A stretch of DNA of 60,031 nt, the filler included, from Bonamia ostreae (Eukaryota), in NCBI GenBank assembly GCA_040357525.1. It is 9 parts of 9 records of this genome, joined end to end, with 100 filler letters (N's around TTAATTAATTAA, not from the genome) between each part and the next. Parts side by side here need not be neighbours in the genome. Positions count along the whole stretch, not along the records: positions 1 to 6,642 come from JBDODL010000113.1; 8 more parts are not named here. One strand, 5' to 3'. Under the pieces are notes generated by a model that was not told the origin of the DNA, made no database searches, and saw only the letters and a list, made by a program, of their open reading frames with translations. The position numbers were made by a program, and so were the translations under genes. Positions 3,788-6,621 of this stretch are shown one piece after another. Each line of letters starts with the position of its first letter. The stretch's first letter is position 1.

Positions 3788-6621
3788 TCATTTATTAAGA
3801 CAAGCTTTTATTAAACCATCGACTAAAATCGGTGAACCGAACGCGACGGTCTCTCTGTCGTCAATCCCGTCGATTTTTTTGTCCATTATCTTTTCGCCGT
3901 TCAAACAACTCGCTCTCCCGTCCGATTGCTCTATCAAATGGGCGATCGAACGAGATTCAGTTGTCAATTTCAGTTTTCCGTTCGGATACTAATTTTATGA
4001 TTTTTTGAAGAATTAATTTTATGATTTTATAATTTTCTGGCGAAAAATCAATTCTTTGATTTTTCAAAATTGAAAAAGAAATTGAAAATTGTTCGAAAAC
4101 ATGTTCGTTTTGAGGATAAAAATAGATTCCGCCGTAAAGAAGGGTTCGATGAATGTCGGCGACCAGAGAACCGACGTATCTCAAACTTTTATTTTTTTGT
4201 TTGAGATCGATCACAAATTGTTTTATCTCCTCTGGCCATTCATTGAAGTAACCTTCGTTCACCGAATAAAATTTTCCGTTTCTTGGAATTTTCACATTTT
4301 TGTGAGATAGCACAAAACAATTCTTCATTTTTTTTGCGAATTAACAAATTTTTATTTTTGATAATTTTTTTGACAAAATTGACGAAATTTCCATTTTTTT
4401 TTGACAAATTAAAATTTTTTTTAAATTTATAAAAACATTTTGTTTATCCAAAGTAAATCCAAAAACGCCATTTCCGAAGGTCAGCATTAAAATTGTAGCG
4501 CTCGAGTACAGACAATAGCCACTAACGATCGGTTTCTAAAAATGTAAATTTCAACTTTGTTTAAGGACTTATTTTCGTCCCCTTCATAAATTCCAAATAT
4601 GGAACCGATCGCGGCGTTTGTGTCGATGTTTGAACTTCCGTCTGCCGGATCCAAATAAACTGTAAATCCGTTTTTTATCTGTTTTATCTTCATTTTTATT
4701 AATTTGCAAAATTGATTATAAAAAAATTTTATTAGAAAAAGTAAAATTTTTAAACTAAATTTAAACGAAAAAAAAATTAAATTGACCGGAATAGGTTCGT
4801 TCTTTTCTAAAGAAACTAAAGAAATGACGTTTTTGACAGCTTTCAGAGATTGCACAAATGAAGAATTAACTAAATTTTTAAATGTCGCCGATCCGTCTGA
4901 GCATTCTACGTCTTCGCATGCTGAAGCAGTGTTTTTGAAACATGTCATCAATGCAAATATTATTTCGCAAATCGATTCGGAATTTTTTACGTCTTTAAAT
5001 TTGACAATTTTAAATTCTCAAATGATAAAAATGTCGTTTTGCAATTAAACAATTTACAAAAATCTCTTTTTTTTTTTAAATTAAACAATTAACAAAAATG
5101 TCGTTTTGCAATTAAAAAAATTTGATAAAAATTTCGTTTTGCAATTAAACAATTTACAAAAATGTTGTTTTATGTCGTTTACAATTAAACAATTTACAAA
5201 AATGTCATTTTGCAATTAAAAAATTTGATAAAAATGTCGTTTTGCAATTAAACAATTAACAAAAATGTCTTTTTATGTCGTTTTGCAATTAAACAATTTA
5301 CAAAAATGTCGTTTTGCAATTAAAAAGAATTGATAAAAATGTCGTTTTGCAATTAAACAATTAACAAAAATGTCTTTTTATGTCGTTTTGCAATTAAACA
5401 ATTTACAAAAATGTCGTTTTGCAATTAAAAAGAATTGATAAAAATGTCGTTTTGCAATTAAACAATTAACTAAAATGTCGTTTTACAATTAAACAATTTA
5501 CAAAAATCTCTTTTTTTTCAATTAAACAATTAACAAAAATGTCGTTTTGCAATTAAAAAATGGAGCAACAAAAAACTAGCCGAATAAGCGAGTCGGCGGA
5601 TAGCATCGGTTTCCTCCGGATGAACGCTCAACAGCGAAGCAGTCAACAACGACACCACTTTCGACCCCTTCTCCCCGTTTTCACCGTCCTCCAAATCGGC
5701 CAAGGTGGCGCTGTCGCTCGGACAATAACTGAAGAACGGCAAATTCTGCTGTTTGTTCAACGCTTCGACGCGCTGTCCGATCTTCCCCACCAAATCCCGA
5801 AACCACGGTGTCTCCAAATCAAACGGCTTTCCCCCCGACACTCGCGCGTAGTCGATGCAACCGATCTCGCCTTCCTGCTCTTGGTCCGGTCCGCAAAGTC
5901 CCGTTCTGCCCTCCATCGCAAACTCCACCGCCTTCTCCGCGCATCTGCGCACCAAATCGCGGTCGAACGCGCCCGCCGGCGCCGCTCTGCAGAAATAGCC
6001 GCTCTTCTGGACCAACACCTTCTCGGCTCCGATCAGCTTGGCCATGACCTGCCCGAACCATTTCCCGGGGTTCAGAGTGTCCAAGCGAACGTGGCCGAAG
6101 GCGTCGCGCTCGACTTTGTCACCTCGCGACTCAATTTCTGCGACGATGGCGTCTGAGCAGGCTCCCTCGCTCAGGAAGATGTTGACGCAGCCCTGCTCCG
6201 CCATTATCGTTTTGAGCCGAGCCGACTCTTCGTCGGCGTTGAACTTAACTTCGGGGAGATAAATGGCGTGCACTTGCGCTTTCGAGCTTTGGACCAAGTC
6301 GACGAAGGAGCGGAGGTTTTGTTGCATGTACAATTGGGCTGTTTTGGCTGTGAGCCAGCCGGAATTGCGGCCCATTATCTCGTGCACGATGAGCATGTTG
6401 GGGTTGGAGGAGAGTTCGGAGACGACGTTTTGGAAGAAGAGGGCGCCTTGTTCGGCGGCGGTGTGGGCGCCGAGTGTTTGGGCGATAGGGACGACGTCGT
6501 TGTCGATTGTTTTGGGGAGCCCGACCACACTCAATTTGTAGTTGTTGTAGTTTTTTAGGAGGTAGAGGCTCAGGTCTCCGGCGGACATGTTTGTGTCGTC
6601 GCCGCCGATTGTGTGTAGGAT
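3788..6621 (-). CDS. PPi-dependent phosphofructokinase fused to a C-terminal FBPase-like domain (5' truncated at contig end)
   Basis: Exon 5577-6621: TIGGDDTN, GLPKTIDND, HEIMGR, QKSGYF. Phase-1 intron 4993-5576. Downstream exons: LDPADGSSNID, RYVGSLVADIHRTLLYGG, YPNGKLKLTTE; TGA at 3788-3790. The domains are near-certain; the fusion is inferred from the splice model. Confidence 0.8.
5030..5560. repeat. ~30-bp minisatellite array filling the PFK/FBPase intron
   Basis: Many variants of aaaaatgtcgttttgcaattaaacaatttac. Confidence 0.95.

Follow-up and report, generated by a model that had tools for sequence, protein, structure and literature searches.

A spliced PFK-FBPase fusion gene of Bonamia ostreae with an FBPase-like domain that has lost catalytic residues and kept its sugar-phosphate pocket

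The window analysed in this study is a stretch of 60,031 nucleotides, in which separate contigs of the Bonamia ostreae assembly follow one another, separated roughly every 6.7 kb by N44-TTAATTAATTAA-N44 spacers; contig C112 occupies positions 1-6642, and the sequences flanking 6643-6742 are not true neighbours. On the minus strand of this contig, six exons (6621-5577, 4992-4787, 4687-4556, 4535-4437, 4322-4101 and 3988-3788) translate exactly to the annotated product of the locus, MHBO_000643 (partial; 634 aa, P0001), which was found in a protein search with the PFK exon as query and contains PFK and both FBPase Pfam domains. All five introns are of the GT..AG type and the reading frame is open. 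The first exon encodes the C-terminal two thirds of a PPi-PFK domain (5764-6621, aa 1-286; Pfam PF00365), a linker (5626-5763, aa 287-332) that has low confidence in the AF2 model, and the first helix of the FBPase-like domain (5577-5625, aa 333-348; helix 335-347 in the AF2 model). A 584-nt intron (4993-5576), most of which is a tandem repeat of about 31 bp (5027-5561), separates this exon from the five that encode a class I FBPase domain and are spliced to the upstream PPi-PFK. An earlier note on this DNA had assigned the domain to 3788-4992; the five exons are indeed there, but the first helix lies upstream, at 5625-5577. The N-terminal 123 aa missing from the PFK are on another contig (C403), matched by a loose end at 6622 in sequencing run X1, and the full protein is about 757 aa.

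The kind of run X1 was guessed as RNA, and its contigs are spliced at GT..AG. One contig of this run contains the joint between the PFK exon and the first FBPase exon (4992|5577), with 76 letters on the short side and marked 'between: not known'. The same run also shows the 20-nt and 114-nt introns flanking the exon at 4437-4535 spliced, and the 4787-to-4687 splice is supported by matching loose ends; four of the five introns are thus seen spliced, the exception being the intron at 4100-3989. Coverage by run X2 is limited to the ribosomal protein S13 gene and the 3' end of the last exon of the fusion gene, with a poly(A)-like loose end at 3777. The PFK-FBPase fusion is spliced as one message and is a real, transcribed feature. 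Its neighbours on the contig are the gene of ribosomal protein S13 (1838-2323, minus strand), which has a 22-nt intron, an ArfGAP gene (3034-3453, plus strand) and a collagen-repeat open reading frame (1053-1556, minus strand). Introns in the window go down to 20-31 nt.

The PFK half is by sequence a member of the PPi-PFK family NF005121 (PRK06555), scoring 401.3 bits against a cut-off of 395 with its N-terminal 123 aa missing, and is up to 57% identical to one that stands alone. Two signatures of PPi use, GGDD and PKTIDND, are present together with the motifs MGR, SEG and KSGYFCR, and the PFK appears to be PPi-dependent and intact. GGDD and PKTIDxD are described as PPi-PFK signatures in passages of PMC12203962; section 6 of that paper states that the characterised bacterial PPi-PFKs are non-allosteric, that F2,6BP activates the plant enzymes and that the reaction runs close to equilibrium. 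An ATP-type PFK was not found in the Bonamia assembly, which is fragmented (7503 contigs), and this result is not counted as evidence.

Residues of the FBPase-like domain are numbered after human FBP2 (chain 4he0), and were compared with those of 71 FBPase-family proteins from homology searches; these are matches to a degenerate query, so that unusual members would, if anything, be over-represented in the set. The exon at 4787-4992 encodes helix 2, a collapsed loop (a turn at 4912-4901) and helix 3. From K42 to N78 the Bonamia domain has 24 residues, against a median of 37 and a shortest value of 28 in the 71 proteins; the dynamic loop is 13 residues short, and N64 and D68 are absent. The earlier note had described both loop 52-72 and the KLD motif of residue 74 as absent. 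The shortening of the loop is borne out, whereas KLD is substituted (TFK, with D74 replaced by Lys at 4879-4877) and helix 3 is present. In the same exon VSEE reads VSLE, so that E97 is Leu (L410, 4810-4808), and in the last exon (3788-3988, with the stop codon TGA at 3790-3788) GKLRLLYE reads GKLKLTTE, so that R276 is Lys (K575, 3970-3968) and Y279 is Thr; both changes had been noted before. D74, E97 and R276 are retained in 67, 68 and 66 of the 71 proteins, respectively. No hidden exon can restore the loop, because the shortening is inside the single exon 4992-4787, and the spliced contigs skip the entire 584-nt intron.

The ligands of metal site 1 are kept, namely D118 (4651-4649) and D121 (4642-4640) in the exon with DPADGSSN (4556-4687) and E280 (3958-3956) in the last exon, as are E98, G122, S123 and N125. 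The change from DPLDGS to DPADGS, which had been listed among the catalytic losses, is present but probably is not a catalytic loss, because L120 contacts the metal via its backbone carbonyl only (PMC3785478, in part). The next exon (4437-4535) encodes the strands SGYCLYS and GVFGFTLD, and the exon at 4101-4322 encodes the 6-phosphate pocket. Its fructose/6-phosphate ligands N212 (4259-4257), Y215 (4250-4248), R243 (4181-4179), Y244 (4178-4176) and Y264 (4118-4116), together with K274 (3976-3974) in the last exon, are all kept, as is G246; the 6-phosphate elements SVNEG, RYVGS, YFYP and K274 of the earlier note, like the other motifs that it quotes, are found where it placed them, on the minus strand. 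In passages of PMC3785478, metal 1 is assigned to D118, D121 and E280, metals 2 and 3 are said to need E97, and metaphosphate is salt-bridged by R276 in earlier complexes. Passages of PMC5639204 describe D68 of the loop as catalytically critical, D74 as holding a water bridged to metal II, and the 6-phosphate as bound by an Arg of the neighbouring subunit. Judged from the sequence, then, the residues that cleave the 1-phosphate are stripped and those that hold the sugar 6-phosphate are kept. The residues that we take to be those of the mammalian AMP site are also changed (T27-T31 to S, E, S, I and C; K112 to G; Y113 to F; R140 to E), and AMP sensing at the canonical site was rejected.

Mutants of E97, D74 or R276 lose most activity; our literature search for mutagenesis papers on these residues gave nothing relevant. 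The fused domain very probably has little or no phosphatase activity, and slow turnover is possible because metal site 1, E98, G122 and S123 survive in the Bonamia copy. The fold, the N- and C-terminal Pfam domains and metal site 1 of class I FBPase are present, and E97, loop 52-72 with N64 and D68, D74 and R276 are absent. Because three defining catalytic features are missing, the domain, which scores 222 bits against the NCBIfam class 1 FBPase cut-off of 368, should not be classed with the active class I FBPases.

For AF2 modelling, the alignment consisted of P0001, the fusion protein P0037 described below and the 71 FBPases. Because the alignment was built on FBPases, the PFK half is poorly modelled, and no PFK-FBPase contact is seen in this model. 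In the predicted FBPase domain, 10-residue blocks from aa 341 to aa 634 have pLDDT values of 84-98, and a 2-residue turn links helix 353-376 to helix 379-399. Class I FBPases rank first in a Foldseek search, with a TM score of 0.89 to human FBP2 (4he2), normalised by target. Alignment and structure prediction, which the earlier note had proposed as a check, thus give an intact fold lacking the loop, D74, E97 and R276. The homodimer model reaches 0.79 against 0.00 for the best control, with contacts that agree at 89% or more and a pLDDT of 91, although it may merely reproduce solved FBPase dimers; in the calibration, 21 of 30 solved pairs and 0 of 23 single chains passed the mark among microbes, and 17 of 29 and 0 of 30, respectively, among eukaryotes. 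The predicted interface includes aa 516-518 and 541-544, that is, N212, R243 and Y244.

A second PFK-FBPase fusion paralogue has its 3' end on the same contig (1-424, plus strand; exons 1-207 and 239-424; Pfam FBPase_C); this end reads SVNTSY, RYIGSM and GKMKLTTE and faces the main fusion gene tail to tail. A 2314-nt contig of run X1 is spliced at 207|239 and also contains a stretch similar to PFK, which matches 6484-6522 on the other strand. Contig C1353 has the C-terminal part of a PFK followed by a degenerate N-terminal part of an FBPase, and we infer that it is the upstream part of the paralogue at 1-424; the gene model is of our own making, with the introns of C1353 placed from DNA alone. 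Paralogue 2 also reads DALDGES. The assembly yielded no N-terminus for its PFK.

A complete PFK-FBPase fusion of 762 aa (P0037) is present in EukProt under the label Nonionella stella, a foraminiferan; the source of the entry is the foraminiferan itself or a passenger. Expression of a cytosolic PPi-PFK in N. stella is described in a part of PMC11736642. The fused domain of P0037 has D74N, E97Q, E98Y and R276G, and its loop is 5 residues short. The fusion is thus common to at least two rhizarian data sets, and the two organisms in which we found it are B. ostreae and that of the Nonionella-labelled data set. Of 55 columns with at least 85% conservation, the domains of P0001, paralogue 2 and Nonionella keep 41, 38 and 47, respectively. 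Exactly three of the 55 columns are lost in all three, namely D74 (K, S and N, in the same order), E97 (L, R and Q) and R276 (K, K and G); the register of D74 and E97 is uncertain in paralogue 2, but neither register yields D74 or E97. Six of the eight columns lost in Nonionella are N64, D74, E97, E98, S123 and R276, and S123 is Val in Nonionella and Glu in paralogue 2. Chance would give about 0.6 shared losses against the three observed, so that the count by itself is modest. The probability that three random columns are all catalytic is about 0.003-0.008, given 9-12 catalytic columns among the 55, a set size of our choice, and this value ignores shared ancestry, the three domains not being independent. 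The pattern inferred in the earlier note, a pseudo-enzyme with a kept pocket, therefore recurs in the sequences of three fused domains from two organisms.

In a quick tree of the full alignment the three fused FBPase domains form a clade (SH-aLRT 93), which was recovered in just one of three quick trees built without the N-terminal and R276 columns. The PFK halves of the fusions group at 82, also in a quick tree, with an unfused protein inside the group. P0050, of which the part used is garbled at its N-terminus, was excluded from the counts and the trees. A single origin of the fused domains is not established by these trees.

The Bonamia genome also has a stand-alone canonical FBPase, on C405 (2585-3665, plus strand) and C3843 (minus strand), the two halves of which probably belong to one gene. 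It keeps N64, D68, D74, E97, E98, R276 and E280, with every catalytic residue that lies on the contigs intact, and 50 of the 55 columns; four of the five missing columns fall within the assembly gap, next to which the fifth has Ser in place of Ala. Because this FBPase keeps 50 and the Nonionella domain 47 of the 55 columns, the losses in the fused domains are not general parasite drift. Two PFK-2-type loci with Walker A motifs are also present (C108, about 6150-6727; C623, about 1519-2600), of which the C623 gene has a histidine phosphatase domain as well. These genes could serve only the stand-alone FBPase.

The explanation that we favour, at about an even chance and in line with the allosteric module suggested in the earlier note, is that the fused domain is a pseudo-phosphatase that senses a sugar phosphate and regulates the PFK, with F2,6BP as the likeliest ligand. 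Without metal sites 2 and 3, the water relay of D74 and R276, FBP would be hydrolysed poorly or not at all. Two domains would pair as in FBPase, the R243 of the partner completing the 6-phosphate pocket; the pocket would hold a fructose phosphate without turnover, and its occupancy would shift the oligomer and tune the attached PFK. A dead phosphatase would also avoid a PPi-wasting cycle, which an active FBPase on the same chain would make, and thus the loss of catalysis is understandable. F-2,6-P2 is described in part of PMC5108348 as a competitive inhibitor in the FBPase pocket, where its 2-phosphate cannot bind metal, and the same source has the 6-phosphate held by two Tyr and an Asn and the sugar bound by K274. 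Since its 2-phosphate makes no metal contact, F2,6BP depends on the retained residues and not on the lost ones. The two PFK-2-type loci also speak for this ligand. However, S123 is variable and R276 is lost, both near the position of the second phosphate, and thus F6P, and not a bisphosphate, may be the ligand. A more speculative extension, which we regard as doubtful, is that an ancestor of Retaria and Endomyxa fused a dead FBPase to a non-allosteric PPi-PFK of the bacterial type and reused the inhibitor pocket as an F2,6BP sensor; F2,6BP control of glycolysis would then have a third structural origin, independent of the others, and the two Bonamia paralogues would possibly be hetero-oligomeric.

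An alternative that we consider unlikely is that the dead domain is a scaffold only, which dimerises or stabilises the PFK or pairs the paralogues, the pocket persisting as dimer interface. The presence of N212, R243 and Y244 in the predicted interface is consistent with this, as is the additional loss of the AMP site (changes at G28, T31, K112, Y113 and R140). Yet Y264, K274, D118, D121 and E280 are outside the listed interface and are kept in all three fused domains.

A rather lower probability is given to the domain being still an enzyme, that is, a slow or differently specific sugar bisphosphatase using fewer metals in a bifunctional protein. The metal 1 ligands, E98, G122, S123 and N125 of the Bonamia copy and the conservative replacement R276K point in this direction, and similarly degenerate stand-alone proteins exist: 8 of the 71 background proteins are without two or more of N64, D/E68, D74, E97 and R276, so degeneration is not unique to the fusion. 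However, E97, a ligand of metals 2 and 3 (PMC3785478, in part), and D68 and D74, both needed for catalysis (PMC5639204, in part), are gone, and the replacements listed above differ between the copies, which suggests relaxed sites and not a new active site. Furthermore, the genome has a canonical FBPase, and identity as SBPase was rejected, because the domain matches SBPases much less well (E about 1e-16) than FBPases (about 1e-47).

It is improbable that the domain acts as a ligand buffer, holding F6P or FBP beside the reversible PFK for hand-off and so biasing flux without allostery: the pocket would suit the substrate and product of the PFK itself, and passages of PMC12203962 place PPi-PFK near equilibrium, but by general reasoning a stoichiometric site cannot shift a steady state, and no channel is evident. 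The least probable reading, an artefact or decaying relic (genes mis-joined in a fragmented assembly, a missed exon or a domain free of selection), could appeal to the single, ambiguously marked contig at the PFK-FBPase joint and to the guessed nature of run X1, but is largely refuted by the open frame and the introns, by the mid-exon shortening with 41 of 55 columns kept, and by the same layout in a single protein of another organism.

The preferred reading, a sensor domain attached to PFK, can be compared with known systems. With class I FBPase (PF00316 and PF18913; human FBP2 4he2, pig) the Bonamia domain shares the fold, metal site 1 and the fructose/6-phosphate pocket, and may share the predicted C1-C2 dimer; it differs in the short loop, the loss of N64, D68, D74, E97 and R276, the changed AMP site and its fusion behind a PFK. 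The second half of PFK1 supplies an effector site. Eukaryotic ATP-PFK1 and plant PFP alpha/beta likewise pair a catalytic unit with a degenerate, regulatory one and have F2,6BP as an activator; the tandem fusion, the alpha/beta subunits and the activation are described in parts of PMC9512073 and PMC12203962. However, their regulatory unit is a PFK paralogue, whereas that of Bonamia would have an unrelated fold, borrowed from the gluconeogenic enzyme that opposes PFK. Compared with the other NF005121 PPi-PFKs, the Bonamia protein adds a C-terminal domain of FBPase fold, and the characterised bacterial PPi-PFKs are non-allosteric in the portion of PMC12203962 cited above. PFK-2/FBPase-2 (PFKFB) also has kinase and phosphatase names on one chain, but its folds are unrelated (PF01591 and histidine phosphatase), it acts at the 2-position, both halves are active, and its genes are separate ones in the Bonamia genome.

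A PFK-pseudo-FBPase fusion was not described in the literature searched, which covered main texts, supplements (where the gene may be listed) and most subscription papers being outside its scope. The main texts of PMC11069148 and PMC9329632 gave no PFK, fructose or fusion and no term matches, respectively; passages of the main text of PMC9998036 had nothing on a PFK-FBPase fusion, and those of PMC12203962 only PFK fusions of other kinds. For PMC9512073, 12 of 19 term places were covered, and for PMC11736642, 12 of 20, its single occurrence of 'fusion' being outside these. If the sensor reading is true, this would be a new PFK architecture, in which a central metabolic enzyme has become a regulatory pseudoenzyme attached to the very enzyme that it opposes. 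It would bear on how organisms with reversible PPi-PFK divide glycolysis from gluconeogenesis, which part of PMC12203962 presents as an open question, and would be a control point in a notifiable oyster parasite, unlike the animal enzyme. The fusion could also be a rare genomic marker within Rhizaria.

Proteins with both domains were 2 of 48 matches in one protein search (P0001 and P0037), 1 of 28 in another (the query itself) and 2 among the 120 matches listed of 648, with 8000 candidates scored, and no best stretch spanning both domains was among the 150 matches listed of 8445; these counts do not show absence from other Rhizaria. The ESM Atlas gave no usable match for the fusion. The one candidate fusion locus found was an FBPase fragment beside an insertion element and was rejected. 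Many proteins of 600-970 aa (P0002-P0034) also belong to the PPi-PFK family of the fusion; the ones inspected are PFK-PFK duplications in tandem, one of them named from Eutreptiella.

Pseudo-FBPases may be a wider unrecognised group. P0109, P0163 (Helgoeca nana), P0181, P0065 (Rhodosorus marinus), P0224 and P0116 are stand-alone FBPase-like proteins without two to four of the catalytic residues, and three of them have R276G in common with the Nonionella domain. P0081 (766 aa, in a cluster of 91) is a tandem FBPase-FBPase protein, a parallel pseudo-FBPase fusion, in which the second copy keeps the catalytic residues and the first has neither the loop nor D74, its RLRLLTE resembling the LTTE of Bonamia.
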